Below, in pieces: positions 1 through 24,202 of a stretch of DNA of 28,322 bases. Both the position numbers and the translations under genes were made by a program. Below the pieces are notes generated by a model that saw only the letters and a list, made by a program, of their open reading frames with translations, did not search any database and was not told the origin of the DNA. How positions within the stretch are numbered: the stretch's first letter is position 1; each line of letters begins with the position of its first letter. The stretch is from a virus (taxonomy: Duplodnaviria; Heunggongvirae; Uroviricota; Caudoviricetes), in the IMG/VR virus record IMGVR_UViG_2778261641_000008; one strand, given 5' to 3'.

Positions 1-992
1 CGAACCAGCCAGACCAGCATCAGGATAATCGCGACTAACAGTATCCACAGCGCGGGACGCGTTGCCATATTTTGCAACGTGTCCATCATCGGTGGAAAAG
101 GATTAAGCAGCGGTTGCATATCACGCGGATCAATCCCTTTAACCCGCCGTTGATAAAGCTGATTAAGAATATCCTCGGCCTGGGCAGAAGAAAGCGATGA
201 TTGCGCAGAAAGGCCATATTTTTGCTGGATATATGCCGATAACGCCGCCAGTTCACTGGCATCTAAAGGTTGTTTTAGCGCCATCTGTAGTGATTCCAGC
301 GTCGGCGTATTTTGCTGGCTTAACGTCTGGCGCGCCTGCAACCAGGTCACCAGATGGTTAAACAGTTTCGCTGGAATTAACTCGCCATCTTTCACCCCGG
401 AAAGTTCCAGCATCGATTGCCAGATCTGTTTGCTGGGTTCCCCCGTTGCCGCCGCAAGTTTGGTCACCAGCTGTTTTAGCGCATTGTGCTCCGCCGGTAA
501 TAAAGGACGGTCGGTCGCCTCGCGCTGCTGTGGTTGCGGAATAACCATCTTCCCTTCCTGCAACAGGGTGAGAATGGTTTTTAATTGCTCCGGTGAGAGC
601 TGATTCAGCGGCGTCTGACCAAAGTTATGACGGATATAATCCGTGACCGCCTGACGATTATTCCCCAGACGTAAATACTCCCCTAATTGCGCTAAAAGCT
701 GGCGGGCAGAATGGCTTTTTTGCGCGGCCAGCAGACGTTGCGCCAGATTATGCTCAGCGGCAGGGAAGTGACGCGAAAGCAGCGGTGAATCTCCCGACAG
801 ACCAATATCGTGCCTGATACCCGCCCACAGTTCTGCTCTTTGTTGTTGCGTCAGTGAGGTCACTTTCGTCATTAAGCTTTCCAGCGAAGTACGTTGCTGA
901 CTGGATAAAGGCTGATTGCCCGCGCCAGACGGCAGGTTATCTCCCTGACCTGGTGGTTGCCCAGGAGGAGGGCCGGAAATAGGTTGTATCAT
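1..992 (-). CDS. flk: Flk-like flagellar regulator with C-terminal membrane anchor; 3' end cut by window edge
   Basis: Minus-strand frame open from the window start to ATG at 992-990, with AAGGA about 8 nt upstream. Translation starts MIQPISGPPPGQPPGQ and ends in a hydrophobic anchor ALWILLVAIILMLVWLV. Recognised from memory, not searched. Confidence 0.55.
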   Translation of the reverse strand, partial: MIQPISGPPPGQPPGQGDNLPSGAGNQPLSSQQRTSLESLMTKVTSLTQQQRAELWAGIRHDIGLSGDSPLLSRHFPAAEHNLAQRLLAAQKSHSARQLLAQLGEYLRLGNNRQAVTDYIRHNFGQTPLNQLSPEQLKTILTLLQEGKMVIPQPQQREATDRPLLPAEHNALKQLVTKLAAATGEPSKQIWQSMLELSGVKDGELIPAKLFNHLVTWLQARQTLSQQNTPTLESLQMALKQPLDASELAALSAYIQQKYGLSAQSSLSSAQAEDILNQLYQRRVKGIDPRDMQPLLNPFPPMMDTLQNMATRPALWILLVAIILMLVWLV

Positions 993-1189
993 TACGTATC
1001 CTTATACCTGAAATCTTCGCAAGTATGCCTGGCCGCGAGATTATGGCACACTTGTCCGGTTAACTCTCGTCTCATACAGGTAACACAAACGTGAAAATCC
1101 TTGTTGATGAAAAAAATGATGATTTAATTTATTGATATAAAAGGATTTATATCAGCACGTGTCCACGTAGTGACCACATTTTCGAGTTA

Positions 1190-1231
1190 CAGATAACACA
1201 AAGCCCGTTTTCACGGGCTTTGTGTTATCTG
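1190..1231. repeat. Perfect inverted repeat, 18-bp arms with 6-nt loop (CAGATAACACAAAGCCCG ttttca CGGGCTTTGTGTTATCTG)
   Basis: Read directly from the sequence. It lies between the flk 5' region and the 3' end of the 1260-2153 gene. No U-tract on either side. Confidence 0.85.
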
Positions 1232-1259
1232 TGATTGTGGCTAAGCCACATGATTTATG

Positions 1260-2153
1260 CTATTTCCAGTTACAAGCAGCTTGAAGTGGTTTTAGCGCGT
1301 TTGACAGGCCGTTTAAATTGAAAGTTGCACTTACAGGACTCTCATTATAAGGAGTTATTTTTGTATACATTTTGTTTGAGTTGGCTAGTTTTCGGATGAA
1401 ATCAATGTCATTACCTTTATAAAAAACAGCCTTTGTATCTGTAGATACTAGCCAGTTTCGCTCAACTGCTTTCTGTTTATCAAGACGATAAAGCATGCTG
1501 GTTTGTTCAAGGCCTAAATATACATCCCAACTAAGAAATACTTCGGTTTTCTTTTCTCGGCAAGCTATAAACAGAGTGGGAGTAACCGCTTCTCCAAATG
1601 GAGTTCTGATATAATCATCACTTTCTAACGATAAAATTACATTTTTCGAATCATCAATTGGCGATGTAGTAATGGATGTGTGCCATTTTCCTACATCTGT
1701 GGCTTTCTCTAATTTTGATTCAGCTTGAACAGCTTTATCCTGTGGGAATAGTTTATCGTAGCAGTTTAGTCTGGCTTCTTTATCATTTTCTGCTCGGCAT
1801 TTAGATATCTCAGAAAGATTTGGTTGCTGAGCCTCTGTTGTTACTGGCTTTTCCGTTTTAGATTTTGAGTTTACAGATGGAGTAAATGTTGGAGAAAAAA
1901 AACGATCATAACAAGATAAACGTCTGTCATCATCTTTCTCATCAGGGCATTGATCTCTGCTTTCGAATTTTTCAGCAACTTTCGTTCGAGTCGGTTGTAT
2001 TGACTTATCGTAACAAGAAAGTCTGTCTTTATTATTTTCTATTGCTCGGCACTGGAGTACTGCATTGAAGTTATTATGTTCAGTTGCTGCGTGAACAGGC
2101 AGTACACTAATTGATATAAATGATGCACCTATAGAAAAAATTATATTTTTCAT
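1260..2153 (-). CDS. Secreted protein with signal peptide and three tandem Cys-containing repeats; unknown function
   Basis: 297-aa ORF. N-terminal signal-like segment MKNIIFSIGASFISISVLPVHA. Motif recurs three times: RLSCYDK, RLSCYDRFF, RLNCYDKLF. AT-rich relative to flanks; immediately downstream of the 2158-2490 gene. Confidence 0.6.
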   Translation of the reverse strand: MKNIIFSIGASFISISVLPVHAATEHNNFNAVLQCRAIENNKDRLSCYDKSIQPTRTKVAEKFESRDQCPDEKDDDRRLSCYDRFFSPTFTPSVNSKSKTEKPVTTEAQQPNLSEISKCRAENDKEARLNCYDKLFPQDKAVQAESKLEKATDVGKWHTSITTSPIDDSKNVILSLESDDYIRTPFGEAVTPTLFIACREKKTEVFLSWDVYLGLEQTSMLYRLDKQKAVERNWLVSTDTKAVFYKGNDIDFIRKLANSNKMYTKITPYNESPVSATFNLNGLSNALKPLQAACNWK

Positions 2154-2157
2154 TTTG

Positions 2158-2490
2158 TTATCCTTTTGGTTTAGTAAGAAATACTAAAATTCCGATAATG
2201 ATATCGCCAATAACCCATAAACTTCCAATGGTAATTAAACCTAAGCCTGTACCAATAACTGCACCGGCTTTTTCGGCATCGGATGTAGCATTATTTATTA
2301 TTTCACTAGTGCCTCCCAGTCCAACTAAAAGCGTATAGATCATAAAAATATTAAATAATATAAATATCCACTTAATGAGCTTTCCAAAAAATGAACGCTT
2401 AAGTTTTTTTATTTGTTTACCGCAAGCAGGGCAATACAATGCTGAATCGCTCACCTCTTTCTGGCATTCAGGACATTTGATTAATGCCAT
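2158..2490 (-). CDS. Small membrane protein with N-terminal zinc ribbon (CPEC-x13-CPAC) and two predicted TM helices
   Basis: 110-aa ORF with strong RBS AAGGAGG upstream of ATG at 2490. Hydrophobic segments IKWIFILFNIFMIYTLLVGL and LITIGSLWVIGDIIIGILVFL. AT-rich. Confidence 0.6.
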   Translation of the reverse strand: MALIKCPECQKEVSDSALYCPACGKQIKKLKRSFFGKLIKWIFILFNIFMIYTLLVGLGGTSEIINNATSDAEKAGAVIGTGLGLITIGSLWVIGDIIIGILVFLTKPKG

Positions 2491-2751
2491 GTAATCCGCC
2501 TCCTTTGGATCAATACGAGTTGATATTTGTTACAAAACATTTTGATTTTATCAGATTTTTTTTTATTGATAAGTGTCAATTGATTAGCTGGTATAGAGTG
2601 AGACATATAGAAGGGCAGATCTGTATCAGTAGTGATGCAAAAATCCCACAGTTTCATGGAATTTTTGCATTTAGAGCCGTGAGATAGGGTGCCTTATCGA
2701 CCTTACCCTGGCAACCGATTGACGGGGGATTACTCCCCCGTCGCGGTTTCC

Positions 2752-2892
2752 TTACTGCTTACACTGTAAGAACGCCGCAAACTCCGCTCCCCAGAAACTC
2801 ATCCGTATTTCGCACAGCGAACCGTGCAACATCCAGATGATGAGGATTACCGTCACGCAGAACGTGATGGCTGTAAGCGATTTTTGCGACAT
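2752..2892 (-). CDS. Hok/Gef family type I toxin (46 aa); absent from the ORF track because it is under 60 aa
   Basis: Hand translation of the minus strand gives MSQKSLTAITFCVTVILIIWMLHGSLCEIRMSFWGAEFAAFLQCKQ, stop TAA at 2754-2752. It has a TM helix followed by the SLCEIR...AAF signature I associate with Hok/Gef peptides. A 7-bp stem-loop at 2723-2740 (CGGGGGA ttac TCCCCCG) sits in the 3' region. Confidence 0.7.
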   Translation of the reverse strand: MSQKSLTAITFCVTVILIIWMLHGSLCEIRMSFWGAEFAAFLQCKQ

Positions 2893-3082
2893 AGCACTTG
2901 CTCCTTTTCCGGAGAGGCGCTAACCTTTCACTTGCTTAGGGTAGACGGTTAGGGCCTCGGTTAAACAAAAGTGTTTTCCGGGGCCTTTCCACATCTGGCC
3001 TTCGGGTATTCCCTCCGACCATCAGCCGAAAGGCACCCGCGCGTAATCTATCGCTTTTTTGTTACTCCGGCAATTCTGCTTG

Positions 3083-3343
3083 TTAATTCTGAGGTAAAGG
3101 CAAACTCATCTGATTGTTTCCCCTGTGTGAAGCTGGTAGCTCATGCCACGGGATACCTTCTGAAGAGTAAACGCCGGAGGCGTGTTTCGATGTGAATTTA
3201 TGGAAAGCTTCCAGTGTTGAGAAGCATACGCCGCATTCCAGATTGTTACACTGGTAATACTTTTGCCGCACGGTGTTTGAATCATTTTCCGGACGACTTG
3301 TGCGGATACGGGCAGATGCGCCACAAAGCGGACAACGGAACAT
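3083..3343 (-). CDS. ogr: Ogr/Delta-type zinc-finger late transcription activator
   Basis: Translation starts MFRCPLCGASARIRTSR...YYQCNNLECGVCFSTLE, the Cys4 pattern and N-terminus characteristic of P2 Ogr. Confidence 0.85.
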   Translation of the reverse strand: MFRCPLCGASARIRTSRPENDSNTVRQKYYQCNNLECGVCFSTLEAFHKFTSKHASGVYSSEGIPWHELPASHRGNNQMSLPLPQN

Positions 3344-3534
3344 AGCGACCTCCCTTAACGTGGTGTTGCCGCTATTCTAGATTGTACGATCCCTAATTCC
3401 AACTAACAGCTCGCTCTGTGCGAAGAGTGAAAATTGAACTTTCAATAGTTGTTGAACTTCCATACATCCAATGTGAAAATTCATACGTTCATAATAGTTA
3501 AAATTTAAAATATTGTATATCAGGTGAATAAAGC

Positions 3535-4557
3535 ATGGGAAGAGATATAACGCTGTACCCTAAAAAAGCAACTAGAAACGAACTTAAAAATTACCTTGAA
3601 AATTTAGGTTTTAAAAGGTGTAAACATTTGTGGGAATGGCCCCAAGGAACGTTGAATTACTCTTGGTTTGATGATACGGACTTCAAATCTACAGATGGAG
3701 TTTCGGCTGATATATATCCTGTTTCAAATGACGAATTACACATATCTGGTAATAAATGGGCATTGCATGTGCGTAATTTATATAGCGCTAGTTGGCATGA
3801 TGTAAAAATGCTTAATGATGTTCTAAAAGGCGCAAGGAGTCTTTTTGGTGGAACACTTATAGGTGATTATGGGAAAAATAGGTACGCTCCTCTATGGAAG
3901 GATTCTAGTAGTCCGATCAGTCGTGGCATTTCTTCAATATTTAATCATGTCCATCATGAGATTTCCGCTGTTAAACATGCCTTACCTGAACCTTCTATTA
4001 AATTAAACCTACCGGAAGATGGCGGTTTATCCGAATACTTTGATTACATGCAATGTATGGATCCCAGTAGAGTTATATATAATGGATTAGTACCTTTTGC
4101 GGTTGCTATGTTTGAATACTTTTTCTCTAGAGCTTTTCAAATACTTATAAAGTACGATCCTTTCGCAATAGCAAAAAGAACATCGTATAAGCAAAAAGTT
4201 GATTTTGACATTCTGCTTGAGATAGAGAAAGGAAATATTTCAATAGAAAGTGTTATTGCAAGAAATTACACTTTTCAAAACTTAACCCACCTAAACAAAG
4301 CATATAAAGAGTGGCTGGATATAGATGTGAGAGCGATTCTTTATAAGAAAAAAAGAATTGGAAAATCAGTTGATTTTCTTGAGAATCGAATTTCTGAAAT
4401 CATACAATATAGACATGGGATAGTTCATCACTTTGAGTTGGATAGGACCTTAAATCGGGATGGATATATTCATATATTAGATGCGATAGAAAAAAGCATA
4501 ATTGAATTTATCCATTACATAGAAGGCAAATACAAATTTAAATTAAATGCGTATTAA
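3535..4557 (+). CDS. Hypothetical AT-rich cargo protein (340 aa) with C-terminal RHGIVH (Rx4H, HEPN-like) motif; candidate abortive-infection or defence protein
   Basis: Single long ORF in a markedly AT-rich island. AGGTGA RBS 7-8 nt before ATG at 3535. Hairpin at 4586-4609 downstream. Not recognisable as any P2 core protein. Motif QYRHGIVHHF near the C-terminus. Confidence 0.6.
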   Translation: MGRDITLYPKKATRNELKNYLENLGFKRCKHLWEWPQGTLNYSWFDDTDFKSTDGVSADIYPVSNDELHISGNKWALHVRNLYSASWHDVKMLNDVLKGARSLFGGTLIGDYGKNRYAPLWKDSSSPISRGISSIFNHVHHEISAVKHALPEPSIKLNLPEDGGLSEYFDYMQCMDPSRVIYNGLVPFAVAMFEYFFSRAFQILIKYDPFAIAKRTSYKQKVDFDILLEIEKGNISIESVIARNYTFQNLTHLNKAYKEWLDIDVRAILYKKKRIGKSVDFLENRISEIIQYRHGIVHHFELDRTLNRDGYIHILDAIEKSIIEFIHYIEGKYKFKLNAY

Positions 4558-4677: not shown

Positions 4678-5787
4678 TCACTCTGTTTCTGCTATCCATT
4701 CCGGGATTTTTGCCTCAAGCTCAAGCTGTGTGGTAAAGCCGCTGTTATCAATGGTGTGCTCGGCTTTCGCAATAATCCAGTCCTGATTATCAATCTCGCT
4801 TTTAAATCCTGTTACCGTGCCATGCATTTCGGGGTAGAGTTCTGCACGTCCACGCACCAGCGTGATGGAAAATAATGCGGCTCCGCGTTGTAGCTGCTGC
4901 CACTTTGCCGCCGCTGCGCGTCTTGCTGCCTGCTCGTTCTGATAAGTCTTGCGTAACACAAACACATTGCCTTCCGCGCCTTCCATATAATCACCTTCAC
5001 GGCTGCTGCTTTTCTCCTTTTTGGGTTTTGGCGGTTTGCGGCGTTTCACGCTGACTTTTTTCTTTTTCCCGTAATTAAGATCAAGCCAGTAAGCGCGTAC
5101 CCCCGTATACGCCTCGCGGTCAGCAATGCGGAACTGATGGCGATCGCCGCTGCTGCGTGTGATGGCGAACGATGGCAACGGCTGGCCCTGTGCGTTCACG
5201 CCACCGCCGGGCATGATGAATAACAGATTACCGCTTTTTACCGTGGTGATTGCGCCCAGCATTTCCGCCATGCGCGTAAGGAAGGACATGTCGCTTTCTT
5301 CAGTCTGGTCGGCGTGGTCGATTTCGATATCCATCAGCATTTCGCTGATTTGCGGTTTCAGGCTGTACCGATGAGCGATGGCGGATACCACACGTTCAAC
5401 GGTCACATCATGCCAGGACGCCTCACGTTTAACATTAAATTCATCCCGAAAATCTGCGCTTCTGGCTGAAACAGTCAGCCTGTCCGGCGGTCCTTCGTGA
5501 GCGATTTCATCAACAATGTAAGTGCCTTTTTCTGTCAGCGGTTCCCCTTTCCAGCCAATGAGAACCGTCAGACGCGCGCCCCGTGGCGGTAGCTGCAACT
5601 GGCCATCGGCATCATCCAGCGTGATGGTGAGCTGGTCCGCCTCAAATCCCCGGTTGTCGGTCAGTGACAGGCTCATCAGGCGTTCTGCCACGCCGGACAG
5701 CGTTTTACCCTCGGCGAGAATATCAAAATCCGGCATTTTCACGGGGTCTGTGCCCTGACTGAGCAATTGCATGGTGGTGTCGGTCAT
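4678..5787 (-). CDS. D: P2 gpD-like tail protein (late control gene D family)
   Basis: ORF track frame 4678-5919. Preferred start is ATG at 5787, preceded by GGGAGGG 5 nt upstream. Protein reads MTDTTMQLLSQGTDPVKMPDFDILAEG, about 369 aa. Confidence 0.85.
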   Translation of the reverse strand: MTDTTMQLLSQGTDPVKMPDFDILAEGKTLSGVAERLMSLSLTDNRGFEADQLTITLDDADGQLQLPPRGARLTVLIGWKGEPLTEKGTYIVDEIAHEGPPDRLTVSARSADFRDEFNVKREASWHDVTVERVVSAIAHRYSLKPQISEMLMDIEIDHADQTEESDMSFLTRMAEMLGAITTVKSGNLLFIMPGGGVNAQGQPLPSFAITRSSGDRHQFRIADREAYTGVRAYWLDLNYGKKKKVSVKRRKPPKPKKEKSSSREGDYMEGAEGNVFVLRKTYQNEQAARRAAAAKWQQLQRGAALFSITLVRGRAELYPEMHGTVTGFKSEIDNQDWIIAKAEHTIDNSGFTTQLELEAKIPEWIAETE

Positions 5788-5944
5788 CTGTTCCCTCCCT
5801 GTGCGGCATGGTCGCATGTGCGTGCGGAGGGGGTTACTGCTTTTTGTTGTCGCCGTGGCGGGAGAATAGCGCAGGGGTGAGATTACGCGCGTGGTGGGTG
5901 ATGATTGTTGCTGAATCATTTAACGGATACAAGGGGCTGAAGCT

Positions 5945-7129
5945 ATGAGTGAAACTCGTTTTCATGGTGCCCGTGTTACGGAAAATACCGACCTGGTAAC
6001 AGCGATTAACGATGTTGATTCCAGCGTTATCGGTATCGTGGCAACGGCGGATGATGCGGACGCGAAGCTGTTCCCGCTGAACAAGCCCACATTGCTGACC
6101 CGCGTCAATGACGTGCTGGGAAAATGCGGAACAACGGGGACGCTTTATCGTGCGCTTAAGGCCATCGCAGACCAGGTGAGCACAAAGGTGATCGTCGTTC
6201 GCGTGGCTGAACACAAAGAAGAAGACGGAAAGACGCAGGATCAACTGGTTATCGGTGGTTCTGAGGATGACGGCAGCTATACGGGGATGTATGCGCTGCT
6301 TGTTGCAGAGCAGGATGAAAGCATCGGATACCGTCCGCGTATTCTGGCCGCGCCGGAGCTGGACACGGAGGCTGTAACAAAATCCCTGTGCGTGATTGCA
6401 GGTAAACTGCGCGCGTTTGTGTATGCCTCATGTCACGGCTGTAACACGATGGCTGAGGCGATTACCTATCGCCAGAAATTCAACGAACGTGAGGTGATGC
6501 TCTTATGGCCGGACTTCATCGCCTACAACCCGAAAAGTGGCAAAAACGAAACGTTCCCCGCGCCTGCCTATGCGTGCGGCCTTCGTGCGTACATTGACCA
6601 TGAGCAGGGGTGGCACAAATCACTGTCCAACGTTCCGGTTAAAAATGTGCTGGGGATGTCGAGGCATGTGTTCTGGTCGTTGCAGGCCGAAGACAGCGAT
6701 GCCAACAGCCTCAACAACAAAGAAATCACGACCATTATTCGTCGCAACGGGTTCCGCTTCTGGGGCAACCGCACACCGGAAACGAACGCCTACATCTTTG
6801 AGGTGTATACCCGAACCGCACAGGTGCTGGCTGATTCAATTGCGGAAGCGCAGTTTGAAACCATCGACAGTCCACTGACGCCTGCGAACGTGAAGGATGT
6901 TATCAGTGCCATCAGGGCAAAACTGGATTCGCTGGTTACTGCCGGGAAACTGATTGGCGCGGAGTGCTGGTATGACGTGGTGGATAACGGCACCACGGAT
7001 TTACGTCAGGGGCGTGTGCGTATTCGCTACAAATATACGCCCGTTCCGCCACTGGAAGACATGGAGCTTTACCAGACGTTTACTGATGAATTCTTTGGTC
7101 CCGCATTTGCGGTGCTGGGAGGTGCCTGA
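5945..7129 (+). CDS. FI: Contractile tail sheath protein (P2 FI)
   Basis: 394 aa; the FPLNKP...GTLY...AIADQ motifs resemble P2 FI. AAGGGG RBS. Stop overlaps the FII start (TGATG). Confidence 0.9.
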   Translation: MSETRFHGARVTENTDLVTAINDVDSSVIGIVATADDADAKLFPLNKPTLLTRVNDVLGKCGTTGTLYRALKAIADQVSTKVIVVRVAEHKEEDGKTQDQLVIGGSEDDGSYTGMYALLVAEQDESIGYRPRILAAPELDTEAVTKSLCVIAGKLRAFVYASCHGCNTMAEAITYRQKFNEREVMLLWPDFIAYNPKSGKNETFPAPAYACGLRAYIDHEQGWHKSLSNVPVKNVLGMSRHVFWSLQAEDSDANSLNNKEITTIIRRNGFRFWGNRTPETNAYIFEVYTRTAQVLADSIAEAQFETIDSPLTPANVKDVISAIRAKLDSLVTAGKLIGAECWYDVVDNGTTDLRQGRVRIRYKYTPVPPLEDMELYQTFTDEFFGPAFAVLGGA

Positions 7130-7641
7130 TGGCTGTACCAAAACATCTTCGCTTTTTTACGTTGTTTGTGGATGGTGAAAACGAAGTGGGTAAAGTGACA
7201 TCCGTCACGCCGCCCAAACTGACGCGCAAAACCGACAGCTATCGTGGTGGTGGCATGATGGGGGCGGTAAGTATTGATCTCGGTCTGGACGACTCCGCGC
7301 TTGATGCGAGTTTTGTTATGGGGGGCGCTGTTCGTGCGCTGTTCCTTAAATATGGCGGCACGATTGACGGCACGCTGCTGCGTTTTGCGGGTGAATACTA
7401 CACCGATGCAGAAAGCGATCTGTATGAAATCGAGATGCGCGGACGTGTGACGGAAATTGATATGGGGGAAGCCAAACAGGGCGAAGCCACATCACACACT
7501 TACGCTGTCAAAAACACCTACTACAAGCTGAGCGTTAACGATCGCCCGCTGTGGGAAATCGACCTGTTGAACCACATCTACCGGAAGGACGGCAAGGACA
7601 TTGTGCCTGACCGTATCCGTTCCGCGCTTGGGCTTGGCTGA
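7129..7641 (+). CDS. FII: Tail tube protein (P2 FII)
   Basis: 170 aa; SVTPPKLTRKTDSYRGGGM...RFAGEY...EIDMGEAKQGE matches my recollection of P2 FII. Confidence 0.9.
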   Translation: MAVPKHLRFFTLFVDGENEVGKVTSVTPPKLTRKTDSYRGGGMMGAVSIDLGLDDSALDASFVMGGAVRALFLKYGGTIDGTLLRFAGEYYTDAESDLYEIEMRGRVTEIDMGEAKQGEATSHTYAVKNTYYKLSVNDRPLWEIDLLNHIYRKDGKDIVPDRIRSALGLG

Positions 7642-7696
7642 TAAGTAATATGCAGGCGGCGCAGTGCGTCGCCTCTGACTGAAAAGGAGACAACTG

Positions 7697-8071
7697 ATGA
7701 AAGACATCGATACTGAAACCCGGAATAACACCGTGGCGGATGATGTGACGGCAGGTGAGGATATGGCTGTCGAACGTGGCGTAAAACTGACCCGACCAAT
7801 TGAGCGTGGTGGCGAAAAAATCACGTATGTGGAGATCACCGGGGCTATTGAGCAGGCTGGATCCCTGCGTGGTCTGTCGCTGTCTGATGTGCTGAATCTG
7901 AAAGCGGATACCATGTTCACGCTGTTGCCTCGCGTGACCTCGCCACGACTGGATGAAGTGATGATTAAAAAAATGTCGTCACGCGATTTTATTCAGTTGT
8001 GCGCTGTGGCTGTAAATTTTATGAGCGAGCCAGACTCTGGCGCGAAGAGCGTGCAGGAGACGGCAGCGTAA
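7697..8071 (+). CDS. E: Tail assembly chaperone (P2 E)
   Basis: 124-aa ORF between tail tube and tape measure, with an overlapping -1 frame ORF downstream. Confidence 0.75.
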   Translation: MKDIDTETRNNTVADDVTAGEDMAVERGVKLTRPIERGGEKITYVEITGAIEQAGSLRGLSLSDVLNLKADTMFTLLPRVTSPRLDEVMIKKMSSRDFIQLCAVAVNFMSEPDSGAKSVQETAA

Positions 8072-8235
8072 TCACCCTGGTGTGCTTTGAGCACATCGAA
8101 GATCTGGTGGCGGATATTGCCGCCATTTTTAACTGGTCGCCCGCCGAAATCTTCATGATGACGCCCGGCGAAGTGGTTAGCTGGCGCGAGCGGGCGGCAC
8201 TTCGCAGCGGGAATGCAGATAATGAAGACTCTTGA
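8017..8235 (+). CDS. E' extension reached by programmed -1 frameshift from E
   Basis: The -1 frame is open from 7969 to the stop at 8233-8235. An in-frame X_XXY_YYZ heptamer A_AAT_TTT lies at 8014-8020. The post-shift reading FYERARLWREE matches the track ORF 7999-8235. Confidence 0.55.
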   Translation, partial: FYERARLWREERAGDGSVITLVCFEHIEDLVADIAAIFNWSPAEIFMMTPGEVVSWRERAALRSGNADNEDS

Positions 8236-11029
8236 TATCCGGGTCGCTTTCAGCGCCGTTGACAGGCTGACCCGGCCTGCCGAAAACGCCCGCCGCCTGA
8301 TGGGGCAGTTTGGTGACTCCATCCAGCGAACGCAGGGGGCGCTCAAAAATCTCGAGCGTCAGGCGCGTTCATTTGAGCGCGCCCGTGACGCTGTCAGTAA
8401 AGCGGATGCGGGCATCGTGAAAGCACGACGCCAGCTTAACGCCCTTAATCAGTTACAACGCACGGGTACAGTGCTCAGCGAAAAACAACAAAAGCTGATG
8501 CAGCAGTTAAGCACCCGGCTTGAACGCCTGAATGAATCGCGCACACGGGAAATTCAAAAAATGCGGGAGCTTGGCGGAGAGCTGAAACGCCACGGCATTT
8601 CCCTGACAGGCAGCGATAACACCATCCAGCAGGCCATCAGACGCACCGAACAGTACAACAACCAGCTTGAACGCGAACGGCAGGCGCTTGCGCGTGTAAC
8701 GCGGGCGCGTGAGCGGTATTCGCGCGCGCAGGAAACAGCGGGAAAACTGAAAACAGGTGGTGCACTGGCAATTGGTGCGGCAGCGGCGGGCGGCTATGCT
8801 GCCGGGCGTTTTTTGCAGCCTGCGATCGGGTTCGGCAAAGAGATGTCCCGCGTTCAGGCACTGACGCGAATCGACAAAAACAGCCCGCAGTTTAAGGCGC
8901 TGCGTGAGCAGGCGTTAAAACTTGGCTCTGAAACACAGTTTACTGCGAGTGATGCCGCCAGTGGGCAGAGCTTTCTGGCAATGGCTGGTTTTACTCCGCA
9001 GGCCATTCAGGCCGCATTGCCCGGTGTTCTTAATATGGCGCTGGCAGGTGGCGTCGAACTCGGCGAGACGGCTGATATAGGCTCCAATATCCTCACACAG
9101 TTCAACCTGACAGCCGATCAAATGGACCGGGTTGGCGATACGCTGACAGCGGCATTCACCCGGACCAATACTGATTTACGCGCGCTGGGCGAAACCATGA
9201 AGTATACCGGTCCGGTTGCCGCAAAACTTGGTATCAGTCTTGAAGAAGCGGCAGCCATGGCCGGGATGCTTGCCAATAATGGTCTTCGCGGAAGCGATGC
9301 TGGTACGGCCATGCGCGCAAGTCTGTCCCGCCTTGCATCACCGCCAAAAGCTGCGGCTGATGCGCTGAAAGAGCTGGGAGTGTCAGTTGCTGACGCCAGA
9401 GGCAAAATGCGCCCGATGGAGGATGTGCTGCTTGATCTCTATAAGGCGACACAAAAATACGGACAGGTGGACCAGGTTTCCTTCTTCAAGGACATCGCCG
9501 GAGAAGAGGCGTTCGTTGGTTTGCAGACGCTTGTTGCGGCGGCTGGTTCAGGAGAGCTGCAAAAACTGACCAGAGAATTGCAGGGGGCAAGGGGAGAGGC
9601 CGATCGCGTCGCAAAAGTAATGGCCGATAATCTTGATGGGGACCTGAAAAATCTCGATAGCGCATGGGAAGGTCTTCGTATTCGCATCAGTGATCTGGTT
9701 GACGGTCCGCTGCGTTCTGTCACGCAGTGGCTCACGCGGGTGCTTGAAAAAAGCACCTCGCTGGCGCAGGCCCATCCGGTACTGACGCGCCAGCTACTGA
9801 TAGCAGGCGGTGCGTTGCTGGCAATGACTGCAACGATTGGCTCGTTGTCGCTGGTTATTGGGGTGCTTTACGGGAAGCTGGCCACCCTGCGTCTTGGTTT
9901 TGACATTCTTACCCGGTCAATGAATGTCGTCAGGGTGTTGCCTGCGCTGTGGGGAATGGTGACGGGTTCCGTTTCTTTGCTGGGAGGCGCTATCGGGGCG
10001 CTGTTCAGTCCGGTTGGTCTTATCGTGGCTGCGCTTGCCGGAGCTGCCGTTCTTATCTGGAAATACTGGGATCCCATCAGGGCATTTTTTGCCGGGGTGT
10101 TCGGCGGGATTATGGAAAGGCTGACCCCGTTGCGTGAAACCTTTGAACGGTTTGGTCCTGTTTTTGACGCAATCGGAAGCGGGATCAGCCAGGTGTTTAA
10201 CTGGTTTAAATCGCTGCTGTCACCGATGGAGTCCAGCAAGGAAACGCTGGATAAATGTACCAGTGCTGGCGAGATATTCGGTAACGTTCTTGGTGGCGCG
10301 CTACAGCTTGTTCTGACGCCTGCAAAAATGTTGCTGGATACGCTGGCGTGGATACTTGAAAAACTCGGTGTGCTTCCGGATGAAGCGGAAAGGGCGAGAA
10401 AGAAAATCGAAGACGCACAGCGTGCGGCCATTCTTCAGGACAAGGTTGCTCTGTTTCAGGGAGACATTGCGAAAATCAATCCGCCGAAGTCTGCGGAAAA
10501 TGGCAATGGCACCGGAGGCGATAAACCCAAAGACAACAAACCGCTCACAGACAGCAATACCGGCACGCTACGCAGACTCAGCAAAATTGCTGATAACACA
10601 GGTAAGCTGGTTGATGAGACAAAAAAACGTATTGGCCCCGGCGATATTGTCTTTAAGAACCTGCCCCGCGCACTTGCTGTTCGTGGGGAGTGGCAGGAGC
10701 GGAAGATTGCGCAGGTCAGTAAGCCTGCTTCCGCAATCAACATCACACCCGTGGTCCCGGCTCTGCTGCCTCCGGCGCTGGTCCCTGTTGTTGCGGCCAG
10801 CTCCCGCCCGGTGGCGGAGGCCATACGATCGCCAGTGGCATCAGTTCCTGCAACTTCCCGTAACCGGGAGCCTGTTGTCTCCGGATTTGGCGGTGAAATT
10901 CATGTTCATCTGCATAACGTTGTTACGCAGAATCCCCGCGAACTGGCGAAACTGGTCGGTGAAATGGTCAGGGCAGAGGTGGAACGGCGTGCTCGTGCCG
11001 GACGTGGCAGTTTTTACGATAAAGATTGA
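8213..11029 (+). CDS. T: Tail tape measure protein (P2 T)
   Basis: 938 aa; coiled-coil N-terminal half, Gly/Ala-rich hydrophobic middle segment, position between E/E' and U. Confidence 0.9.
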   Translation: MQIMKTLDIRVAFSAVDRLTRPAENARRLMGQFGDSIQRTQGALKNLERQARSFERARDAVSKADAGIVKARRQLNALNQLQRTGTVLSEKQQKLMQQLSTRLERLNESRTREIQKMRELGGELKRHGISLTGSDNTIQQAIRRTEQYNNQLERERQALARVTRARERYSRAQETAGKLKTGGALAIGAAAAGGYAAGRFLQPAIGFGKEMSRVQALTRIDKNSPQFKALREQALKLGSETQFTASDAASGQSFLAMAGFTPQAIQAALPGVLNMALAGGVELGETADIGSNILTQFNLTADQMDRVGDTLTAAFTRTNTDLRALGETMKYTGPVAAKLGISLEEAAAMAGMLANNGLRGSDAGTAMRASLSRLASPPKAAADALKELGVSVADARGKMRPMEDVLLDLYKATQKYGQVDQVSFFKDIAGEEAFVGLQTLVAAAGSGELQKLTRELQGARGEADRVAKVMADNLDGDLKNLDSAWEGLRIRISDLVDGPLRSVTQWLTRVLEKSTSLAQAHPVLTRQLLIAGGALLAMTATIGSLSLVIGVLYGKLATLRLGFDILTRSMNVVRVLPALWGMVTGSVSLLGGAIGALFSPVGLIVAALAGAAVLIWKYWDPIRAFFAGVFGGIMERLTPLRETFERFGPVFDAIGSGISQVFNWFKSLLSPMESSKETLDKCTSAGEIFGNVLGGALQLVLTPAKMLLDTLAWILEKLGVLPDEAERARKKIEDAQRAAILQDKVALFQGDIAKINPPKSAENGNGTGGDKPKDNKPLTDSNTGTLRRLSKIADNTGKLVDETKKRIGPGDIVFKNLPRALAVRGEWQERKIAQVSKPASAINITPVVPALLPPALVPVVAASSRPVAEAIRSPVASVPATSRNREPVVSGFGGEIHVHLHNVVTQNPRELAKLVGEMVRAEVERRARAGRGSFYDKD

Positions 11030-11035
11030 GGAGTC

Positions 11036-11530
11036 ATGGCCATGATGATGATCTACGGCATGTTTGTTTTTGAGCTGCGCACATTGCCGCATCAGCAGTT
11101 ACAGCAAAACAAAAGCTGGCGGCATGTGAAAAATGAACGCGTTAACCGTTCAGCAAGCTGGCAGTATATCGGCGCAGGTGATGATCGCATCGTGCTTTCC
11201 GGCGTGCTTTATCCTGAAATTACAGGTGGCGAAGTGTCGCTTTCGTTGCTGACCACACAGGCATATACAGGACGCCCCTGGCCTCTGATTGATGGTGTCG
11301 GGCAGATTTACGGCATGTATGTACTGACTGAAACGAATACGACCCGTTCCGAGTTTGATCGCTACGGTAAGGCGAAAAAGATAGAATTTTCACTGACCCT
11401 TGAACGCTGTGATGAGGATTTGCGGGAGCGTCTGCAATCCTCATCGTTCAGTGATATGCTGTCCGGCTTCAAAGATAAGGTCACATCATCCCTTAACAGC
11501 GCGGCCAGTTCAGTTAAAGGACTGTTCTGA
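11036..11530 (+). CDS. U: Tail protein gpU
   Basis: 164 aa; MAMMMIYGMFVFELRTLPHQ...WRH...GVLYPEITGG..WPL..G resembles P2 gpU. Confidence 0.85.
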   Translation: MAMMMIYGMFVFELRTLPHQQLQQNKSWRHVKNERVNRSASWQYIGAGDDRIVLSGVLYPEITGGEVSLSLLTTQAYTGRPWPLIDGVGQIYGMYVLTETNTTRSEFDRYGKAKKIEFSLTLERCDEDLRERLQSSSFSDMLSGFKDKVTSSLNSAASSVKGLF

Positions 11531-12899: not shown

Positions 12900-13499
12900 T
12901 TATGCTTGTTTACTCCTTGATTCCACTGGGGAAGCTGGCCACTCAATATCCGGTGCTCTTGATGTATCAACACGGTTCAGCAGCACTCGATACTTCTTCC
13001 AGGCTTCCAGCAACGAGATTTCTTCCTCCGTTGCGATTTCCAGATCTACAGCATCCTGAAGTGGCGCAATATGCTCACTGGCTACCTGCATCAGGCTGTT
13101 TTTTGTTTCTTCTGCCTCCCGGATCCGGAACAGTTTTTCTGCTTCCGTATCCTTCACCCAGGCTGTGCCGTTCCACTTCTGATATTCCCCTCCCGGCGAC
13201 AACCAGGTAACATTTTCCGGTAACGGACCGAGTTCAGAAATAAATAACGCGTCGCCGGAAGCCACGTCATAAACCGTTTTACCACGATGATCTTCAACGA
13301 GATGCCAAGACGCCCCATCACTGTTGAAAACAGCCACGAAGCCAGCTGGAATATCTGGCGGAGCAATATCAGTACTATTTGCAGGCAGACCTGTATGAGG
13401 TGGAATGTATGCATCACCTTCACCAATAAATTCATTGGTTCCGACCAGCAGATTATAAATTTTTATGGTTCGTGGTTGTTCACTCATTCTGAATGCCAT
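12900..13499 (-). CDS. G: Tail fibre assembly protein (P2 G / Tfa family)
   Basis: 199 aa immediately downstream of the tail-fibre fragment; sequence typical of tail-fibre assembly chaperones. Confidence 0.8.
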
Positions 13500-23880: not shown

Positions 23881-24057
23881 GGTGTGGCCCCTTGTGTAGT
23901 AAGTTGTGAAAACTCACCATCCAGAGCTGCGAAACTGTGGGTGGCGAGACGTACGAGGTTCGCAGTACCGGCTACACAAGAACCCGGCCCGACCGAAGTC
24001 GGCCCCGTACGCCCCGCCATAATTCTGACGCGAAAAAAACGTGGCAATACAGTACGC

Positions 24058-24080
24058 ACAAAAAAACCGCTGGCGCGGTT
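24058..24080 (-). terminator. Rho-independent terminator within the early region
   Basis: Minus-strand stem AACCGC/GCGGTT with loop, followed by T7 (complement of A-run 24059-24066). Confidence 0.5.
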
Positions 24081-24202
24081 GTGCGCTTGTGTAGTCAGCA
24101 GGCTGCGAAACCCGGCACCCGTTTTGTGAGGTGCAGCGGAAATGTAACCTGACTGATTGCGGCATGGCAAGCGGTTTTTTTGTGTGTGCATGTTCTGGTT
24201 TC

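Follow-up and report, generated by a model that had tools for sequence, protein, structure and literature searches.

The window, i.e., the whole stretch of 28,322 nucleotides analysed here, carries between positions 2687 and 3073 a short toxin gene with a set of RNA elements on the minus strand and, facing them on the plus strand, a predicted antisense RNA gene. The toxin gene, hok (2752–2892, minus strand), lies beside ogr, the late-gene activator of a P2-like prophage (3083–3343, minus strand; Pfam Ogr_Delta, 52.4 bits), which is located 190 nt upstream of the hok ATG, in agreement with the neighbourhood given in a preliminary description of this DNA. Between hok and attR there are two cargo genes, for a zinc-ribbon membrane protein (2158–2490) and for a TagO/VasI-like protein (1260–2153).

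The position of attR follows from two boundaries. Homology common to all 5426 E. coli chromosomes, comprising the 3′ end of flk and the flk–pdxB spacer, stops at approximately position 1113 of the window, and two phage records, PhiR44_2 and phiSM, extend to approximately 1090–1097; hence, attR is placed at ~1090–1113. A candidate attR at ~2680, where P88-like homology breaks, was rejected, as PhiR44_2, phiSM, and P884B11 carry the zinc-ribbon and TagO-like genes beyond it, and it is further excluded by the end of the all-E. coli chromosomal homology at ~1113. The suggestion that hok marks the prophage end holds only loosely for the window, as attR is 1.6 kb away and both cargo genes lie in between. 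Judging from these boundaries, the module is carried as cargo by a P2-like (Peduoviridae) prophage inserted between flk and pdxB, where it lies between ogr and attR. As a side observation, a plasmid-borne relative shows the order D–ogr–hok–integrase, and in relatives with the integrase directly after hok the suggestion about the prophage end is nearer the truth.

The ORF listing of the window contains at 2752–2892 (minus strand) an ATG-initiated frame of 46 codons plus TAA, with the product MSQKSLTAITFCVTVILIIWMLHGSLCEIRMSFWGAEFAAFLQCKQ. The SLCEIR...AAF pattern reported earlier for this frame is indeed present, at residues 25–30 and 39–41. The peptide matches Pfam PF01848 (HOK_GEF) with 30.1 bits (cutoff 22; E = 3.7e-7), PHROG 251 along its entire 46 residues (E = 2.5e-23), and Hok of plasmid R1 in a BLASTP comparison (E = 2e-7); the R1 query is 100% identical to more than 2,600 plasmid records. 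The NCBIfam models HokA (35.8 bits) and Hok (23.6 bits) score under their equivalog and subfamily cutoffs, respectively, and hence we regard the peptide as a member of the family and not as HokA.

Alignment to Hok/Gef proteins, which the preliminary description had proposed as a check, points in the same direction. Eight columns (M1, C12, T14, C27, E28, E37, A39, and F41) are invariant among the window peptide, R1 Hok, K-12 HokC, and three subfamily members. Positions conserved at more than 80% in the catalogue of Hok homologues (Escalera-Maurer et al.; logo positions M1, C16, T18, L30, C31, E32, and E41) are all found with a constant offset of 4, as M1, C12, T14, L26, C27, E28, and E37; C44 satisfies, with the same offset, the logo requirement of C or Y at position 48. 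Given these family matches together with the R1 Hok and HokC alignments, the ORF is predicted with confidence to encode a toxin of the Hok/Gef family. It had been called unannotated, which is true for the ORF track used at that time but not for public databases: RefSeq holds an identical protein (WP_000078920.1, "Hok/Gef family protein"), and phage records label the same gene "MokW-like host killing".

Relatives of the module were retrieved in two ways, by BLAST and, for a larger set, by a pattern that fixes AGGTTAGCGCCTC and ATGNCGCAAAA; since the pattern fixes these two short boxes, invariance of boxes is judged from the 12 BLAST-retrieved sequences. Eleven of the 12 sequences found by BLAST, with DNA identities as low as 75%, keep the length of the ORF with zero indels, and many indels are seen in their leaders versus none in the coding sequence. 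A 46–47-aa ORF is kept in 87 of 88 pattern-retrieved modules. Pairwise dN/dS for the hok coding sequence ranges from 0.06 to 0.68, and these values indicate that the toxin ORF is under purifying selection.

In Stx-converting phages the match is confined to positions 2687–3059 of the window, at ~82% identity, and this span defines a mobile unit of 373 bp. Among 5426 complete E. coli genomes, 1750 (about one third) carry the unit together with its promoter, in up to nine copies per genome. In P2-like prophages it has ogr on one side and the attachment site or integrase on the other; in lambdoid prophages, beside lom and also between J and the tail-fibre gene; on the chromosome, beside serS or ykgM; and on plasmids, in the IncI1 and IncF types. 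A pattern scan of IMG/VR and GTDB adds 128 further occurrences, of which 78 have an ogr homologue directly upstream, 69 of them at the same distance as in the window.

The hok mRNA promoter, as read from the sequence, occupies 3073–3045 on the minus strand (−35 TTGCCG, 3073–3068; 17-nt spacer; −10 TAGATT, 3050–3045), with the predicted transcript start at ~3040–3038, where the match to the Rfam model RF01794 (see below) has its first position as well. Its ATTGC...TA-A-T blocks are retained in BLAST-retrieved relatives down to 75% identity. A consensus promoter scan of the region called neither this promoter nor the predicted promoter of the antisense RNA described below; hence, the support for both assignments comes from their conservation and from homologous positions in R1 and hokC.

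The elements of the predicted mRNA are given here in the 5′ to 3′ direction of the minus strand. The 5′ end is formed by tac (3038–3024, GGGUGCCUUUCGGCU), predicted to pair with either fbi or ucb: its first bases, GGGUGCCUU (3038–3030), are a perfect 9-nt complement of AAGGCACCC (2695–2687), and tac is 90% complementary to GAAAGGCCCC (2989–2980). The ucb box (2992–2983, GUGGAAAGGC) would pair with tac after removal of the 3′ end; in the full-length fold, bases overlapping ucb are paired with the GAGG region instead. The predicted Sok-target hairpin (2958–2914) appears in the fold of the truncated RNA, with GAGGCCCUAACC (2958–2947) paired to GGUUAGCGCCUC (2925–2914). The hok Shine–Dalgarno (SD) sequence AAGGAG (2906–2901) sits 8 nt before the ATG, with a local anti-SD CUCC at 2914–2911, and the start codon region of the coding sequence (2892–2883) is predicted to pair with 2781–2772.

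Ten nucleotides past the stop codon there is a perfect 9-bp hairpin, GACGGGGGA-GUAA-UCCCCCGUC (2742–2734 with 2729–2721; whole element 2742–2721), 99.9% paired in 77 relatives and with four compensatory pairs; it is the 3′ stem-loop of the preliminary description. By analogy with R1 (PMC9841398), this hairpin likely blocks 3′ exonuclease trimming and would thus set the 3′ end of the active truncated mRNA. Further downstream, fbi (2702–2687, GGUCGAUAAGGCACCC) is predicted to pair with tac, closing the full-length mRNA; the Stx-phage homology stops exactly at the fbi end, at 2687. No canonical intrinsic terminator was found downstream of fbi, and a local terminator hairpin around fbi was rejected, as its fold is no better than that of shuffled sequence (z = −0.1). 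Outside the conserved module, a 14-bp hairpin at 2670–2635 (minus strand; −20.5 kcal/mol, z = −4.8) might end transcription of the hok mRNA in the window context, although it lacks a U tract on the minus strand.

At gathering thresholds, Rfam yields zero matches in the region; only in the E-value mode does RF01794 surface, spanning 3038–2879 end to end on the hok-sense strand (51.9 bits, E = 1.7e-10; gathering score 59). As the model matches the hok-sense leader and not the Sok strand, it supports homology of the leader, not the presence of Sok. The same model yields 118 bits for K-12 hokC, 87 for the R1-type locus, and 35.6–57 for four subfamily relatives; since the scores of the subfamily fall below the gathering score, standard RNA annotation overlooks it.

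The 360-nt mRNA-sense RNA (3040–2681) folds with −160.3 kcal/mol (z = −7.4), which agrees with the structured leader noted previously. In the closed fold, tac (3038–3024) and fbi (2702–2687) form a 5′–3′ helix of 15 pairs; SD nucleotides GGAG (2904–2901) pair with CUCC (2914–2911) within a wider helix of 2922–2911 with 2904–2892; and the hok AUG is paired (2892–2883 with 2781–2772). When the last 35 nt are removed, the RNA adopts a new minimum-energy fold (z = −6.6): in this open form tac pairs with ucb (2992–2983), the target hairpin 2958–2914 is formed, and the SD is mostly unpaired.

Both folds were assessed on an alignment of 78 sequences, 77 of them distinct. In the full-length fold 90.4% of cells are paired, and in the truncated fold 90.6%, versus 38–45% with partners slid by 1–3 columns, a control in which the tested structures are favoured by having been derived from the window sequence itself. 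Pairs changed on both sides number 31 in the full-length fold and 28 in the truncated one, and the observed values are reached by none of 500 shuffles. Among the individual helices (77 sequences each), tac/fbi is 90.8% paired, with four pairs changed on both sides, tac/ucb 98.7%, the target hairpin 95.7%, and the SD/anti-SD helix 94.2%; in a long-range helix between the variable leader (2943–2928) and the 3′ UTR (2718–2704), both partners are changed in 6 of 13 pairs. These data show two predicted, mutually exclusive, and evolutionarily maintained folds of the mRNA-sense strand.

On the plus strand, the predicted Sok promoter (2898–2926) has its −35 box TTGCTC (2898–2903) opposite the hok SD and, after a 17-nt spacer, the −10 box TAACCT (2921–2926). 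Both hexamers are invariant in the 12 BLAST-retrieved relatives (to 75% identity), each fitting the consensus at only three of six positions. Transcription is predicted to start at ~2930–2934 and to yield a Sok RNA of ~60 nt (~2930–2992) composed of a short 5′ region and the hairpin GGGCCUCGG...CCGGGGCCU, followed by UUU (−24.0 kcal/mol, z = −2.6). The interval is collinear with the annotated 59-nt SokC of K-12 and has a similar hairpin shape. The antisense RNA had been expected at ~2893–3000, and the predicted gene falls inside this interval. The invariant TTGCTC-17-TAACCT has an R1-like layout, but the consensus scan does not call it as a promoter. Taken together, a conserved candidate promoter and a terminator-like hairpin make the prediction of a ~60-nt Sok RNA well supported.

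We consider it highly probable that positions 2687–3073 comprise a complete type I toxin–antitoxin module of the hok/sok type, carried as cargo of a P2-like prophage and belonging to the 46-aa Hok lineage known as cluster 72. By analogy, its mechanism is very probably that of classical hok/sok. Under the R1 paradigm, the full-length hok mRNA would be stable and translationally inert, and slow 3′ trimming back to the hairpin 2742–2721 would activate it; the short-lived Sok would pair with the leader at 2934–2990, leading to decay by RNase III. If Sok synthesis stopped, be it on loss of the prophage, on host shut-off by an infecting phage, or on prophage induction, Hok would be translated, insert into the inner membrane, and kill or lyse the cell. 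Here, hok would be translated from its own strong SD AAGGAG, gated directly by refolding and with no mok.

Several biological roles are compatible with such a module. It may be active and yet serve in abortive-infection defence or as a lysis helper at induction, not in stabilisation of the prophage; this is a genuine possibility, to which we give distinctly less than even weight. R1 hok/sok lowers the plating of T4, and hokW/sokW of prophage Sp5 raises phage release approximately 2-fold after mitomycin C (PMC8621323). On the other hand, the sequence separates none of these roles, and HokW is a different Hok of 51 aa, so that its phenotype is not simply transferable. With respect to defence in particular, the catalogue (bioRxiv 10.1101/2025.08.07.668861) reports no enrichment of hok near defence systems, and PADLOC offers no matching model for Hok or for the adjacent cargo genes.

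The lack of a mok frame is the sole unusual point of the module. The preliminary description had proposed to look for such a frame, and it is absent from the window copy and not conserved in the subfamily. No ORF in the window with an ATG, GTG, or TTG start begins before the hok SD and reaches it. Only two ATGs occur in the leader. The ORF from ATG 3022 has 28 codons and ends with TAA 2938–2936, 46 nt before the hok ATG; the one from ATG 2994 shares the hok frame, has 24 codons, and ends with TAG 2922–2920, 28 nt before the hok ATG. As the complement of the Sok −10 box, this TAG is invariant. Both ORFs were rejected as mok candidates, being not conserved and stopping short of the SD, as was GTG AAA GGT TAG (three codons) for the same reasons; a GTG located 5 nt ahead of the hok ATG was likewise rejected, being already past the SD. 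The mok-SD-like GAGG (2958–2955) is kept, with no start codon after it. The mok ATG of hokC and R1 aligns opposite CTAACCGTC of the window, and a start codon at this position is absent from the window and from the relatives examined.

Longer leader frames do occur elsewhere. A copy on an ETEC plasmid (94.7% identity) has a 70-codon ORF that runs from the ATG equivalent to 3022 across the hok start; in another relative an ORF of 61 codons begins at the ATG equivalent to 2994; and, in general, some close relatives have ORFs of 61–92 codons that begin at one of these two ATGs and span the hok start. However, an ORF of at least 42 codons across the hok start is found in only ~26 of 77 distinct modules, with heterogeneous starts, and its state varies even among modules with identical Hok peptides.

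As no mok frame reaches the hok ribosome-binding site, we infer that hok is translated from its own SD, gated by refolding. Our tentative proposal, which we hold at slightly short of an even chance, is that the whole cluster 72 lineage is mok-free hok/sok, in which the switch from tac/fbi to tac/ucb gates hok, and Sok acts via decay or refolding. Refolding would free the hok SD from its CUCC anti-SD; Sok would work by RNA decay or refolding, and not by blocking the ribosome-binding site of a leader peptide; and the indel-rich stretch from ucb to the invariant AGGTTAGCGCCTC box might diversify as the specificity determinant of Sok and its target.

The same observations could be read as decay. 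In R1, hok expression needs translation of mok as far as the hok SD, and premature mok stops abolish Hok synthesis and toxicity (PMC9841398); because of this, a copy devoid of mok could be translationally silent. The window module would then be a decaying copy, its mok cut by TAA 2938–2936 and TAG 2922–2920, that hitch-hikes on the prophage, and the 70- and 61-codon ORFs of the relatives, whose window equivalents stop 46 and 28 nt early, agree with this. We consider such silencing unlikely. The long leader ORF is a minority state with differing starts, and the mok start position of hokC and R1 is devoid of a start codon in the relatives examined as well. The Hok ORF, moreover, is intact and under purifying selection in lineages that have no leader ORF: dN/dS is 0.19 for the window versus the serS copy and also 0.19 for the two most divergent copies, which have no long leader ORF; and the regulatory elements are invariant. 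On balance, mok-independent regulation via direct gating of the SD is favoured over a silent copy, although we would not put it quite at even chances.

Finally, one might take the ORF for a fortuitous reading frame within an untranslated, structured RNA or a terminator region following ogr, an idea for which its mere 46 codons and the strong structure of the region might speak. This idea is refuted, and left with a negligible probability, by the Pfam, PHROG 251, and BLASTP matches and by the conservation pattern: dN/dS stays under 1, indels are absent, and 87 of 88 copies keep the ORF. A near-identical peptide, in addition, belongs to a toxicity panel and is absent from its non-toxic list.

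The 390 bp that separate ogr from the next gene are thus accounted for by a type I toxin–antitoxin module, most often joined to ogr of P2-like prophages and found in approximately one third of complete E. coli genomes. If the mok-free reading is true, the module would provide a natural counter-example to mok translational coupling as a requirement for hok expression, and a simpler model in which to study the gating of a toxin by nothing but mRNA refolding. This would be a modest refinement of a well-known paradigm and not a new kind of system.

The locus itself is already known from the RefSeq annotation, public phage records, and cluster 72 of the catalogue. Peptide 72_1621 of this cluster is identical to the window Hok save for one residue (V15A), and peptide 72_1589 is the lom-linked variant of Stx phages. 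Both represent a high-abundance cluster and are among 45 homologues tested by arabinose induction; 42 of the 45 are toxic, and the three named non-toxic ones include neither 72_1621 nor 72_1589 (bioRxiv 10.1101/2025.08.07.668861). An enrichment of hok in prophages is a further finding of the catalogue; for it, the coding sequence alone was expressed behind a fixed SD, and Mok, Sok, and mRNA structure were explicitly left out (bioRxiv 10.1101/2025.08.07.668861). The ogr–att context is not described there.

For hokW/sokW of the Stx2 prophage Sp5, a toxin and an RNA antitoxin have been shown experimentally (Takada et al., 2021, PMC8621323). It is likewise a prophage-borne type I toxin–antitoxin system, and PHROG 251 is named after MokW ("MokW-like host killing"). 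The RefSeq/PHROG label might suggest identity with hokW of Sp5; this was rejected, as HokW, which has 51 aa and resembles HokC/HokD, is a distinct peptide, whose cloning primer begins with ATGAAGCAGCAAAAGGCGATG (PMC8621323). The Stx-phage relatives of the window module, in turn, form a separate locus beside lom.

The 373 bp around hok of the window align collinearly with the K-12 hokC/sokC and R1-type hok/sok leaders. With hokC (gef)/mokC/sokC of K-12 the module shares, in collinear order, the GGGUGC 5′ end, AGCCCCG...TAACC...GAGGC, and AAGGAG-N8-ATG. The two differ in that mokC is an in-frame N-terminal extension of 19 codons, whereas the corresponding frame of the window is closed by TAG 2922–2920; protein identity is only 24%.

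The R1-type hok/sok locus used for comparison was taken from pMTY1886_IncFII. The window toxin is shorter (46 versus 52 aa). There is no mok ATG after GAGG, while in R1 and hokC it follows GAGG by 8 nt, and the hok ATG of the window is preceded, at a distance of 27 nt, by an in-frame TAG that is invariant. The window also has 8 nt less between the Sok −10 box and the hok ATG, the RF01794 score of the leader is lower (51.9 versus 87 bits), and a separate U-tract terminator hairpin after fbi is lacking. Still, the Hok proteins share the C-x-T...LCE...E...AAF signature (33% identity over the alignment), and the antisense promoter TTGCGC-17-TATCCT of R1 has the same layout as TTGCTC-17-TAACCT of the window. 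The elements reported for the hok mRNA of R1 (tac, fbi, ucb, target hairpin, and protective 3′ hairpin; PMC9841398) recur in the window, and both loci show the same order: promoter, tac, ucb, GAGG target hairpin, SD, hok, post-stop hairpin, and fbi.

The Rfam model RF01794, named "sok antitoxin", matches the window at 2879-3038 on the minus strand, which is the hok-sense strand, and its match (below the gathering score) runs from the 5' end of the mRNA to the hok start codon. The match has the same strand and the same extent in K-12 hokC and in the R1-type locus. As the match lies on the hok-sense strand in all three loci, RF01794 is a model of the hok leader rather than of the Sok RNA strand.

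In some genomes and viral contigs (L007, L033, L117), the hok module occurs as tandem pairs, with approximately 460-720 bp between the copies. Exact matches to the module pattern are also seen in genome contigs labeled Xanthomonas pisi, Planococcaceae (a MAG), and Vagococcus sp. (L136, L137, and L139). L136 and L137 are short contigs of 857 and 4211 bp, and the Vagococcus match lies inside a 226-kb contig; these labels likely reflect enterobacterial contamination or misassembly, not true hosts.

Beyond the hok module, two genes lie on the minus strand at 1260-2490: one encodes a TagO/VasI-like protein, which scores 89.6 bits with Pfam VasI, and the other a zinc-ribbon protein whose C-terminal half is hydrophobic. 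These genes are phage cargo, not chromosome. Both are also carried by phages PhiR44_2, phiSM, and P884B11, and on an ETEC plasmid they adjoin hok as well. The consensus scan yields a sole sigma-70-type match in the region scanned, at 2545-2572 on the minus strand (TTATCA and TAAAAT, 16 nt apart, and an extended TG). As this match is immediately upstream of the zinc-ribbon gene, that gene probably has a promoter of its own, following the 2635-2670 hairpin.

The stretch homologous to all E. coli chromosomes (the flk-pdxB spacer) stops at approximately 1113 of the window, and homology to phage records starts at approximately 1090-1097; judging by these breakpoints, the segment at ~1090-1113 probably forms the core of the prophage's attR.

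The interval from ogr to the tail gene D contains a 340-aa ORF (3535-4557) in the opposite orientation, on the plus strand. Its Pfam match to RiboL-PSP-HEPN (22.5 bits) is under the cutoff of 28.4, and searches of PHROG, PADLOC, and NCBIfam gave no match. This ORF is a possible second cargo or defence gene; among the 128 sampled occurrences of the hok module, only two are accompanied by it.

The annotation of a close relative, NZ_CP025892.1 (99.9% identity to the window over the stretches compared, window 940-3400), points to a possible rearrangement or defect of the prophage. There, the block of tail genes spanning sheath to gpU (equivalent to ~5200-11500 of the window) is on the strand opposite to gene D and ogr, and a recombinase (invertase) gene adjoins this block; the annotated gene D is shorter than that of phage 500465-2, and the replication endonuclease contains an internal stop.

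Elsewhere in the window, three Rfam matches above the gathering score are found on the minus strand, at 23937-24134 and 12958-13156: C4 antisense RNA (83.2 bits), isrK (64.1 bits), directly adjoining C4, and IS009 (218.5 bits). Taken together, C4 and isrK suggest an antisense immunity region of the P1/P7 type in this P2-like prophage.
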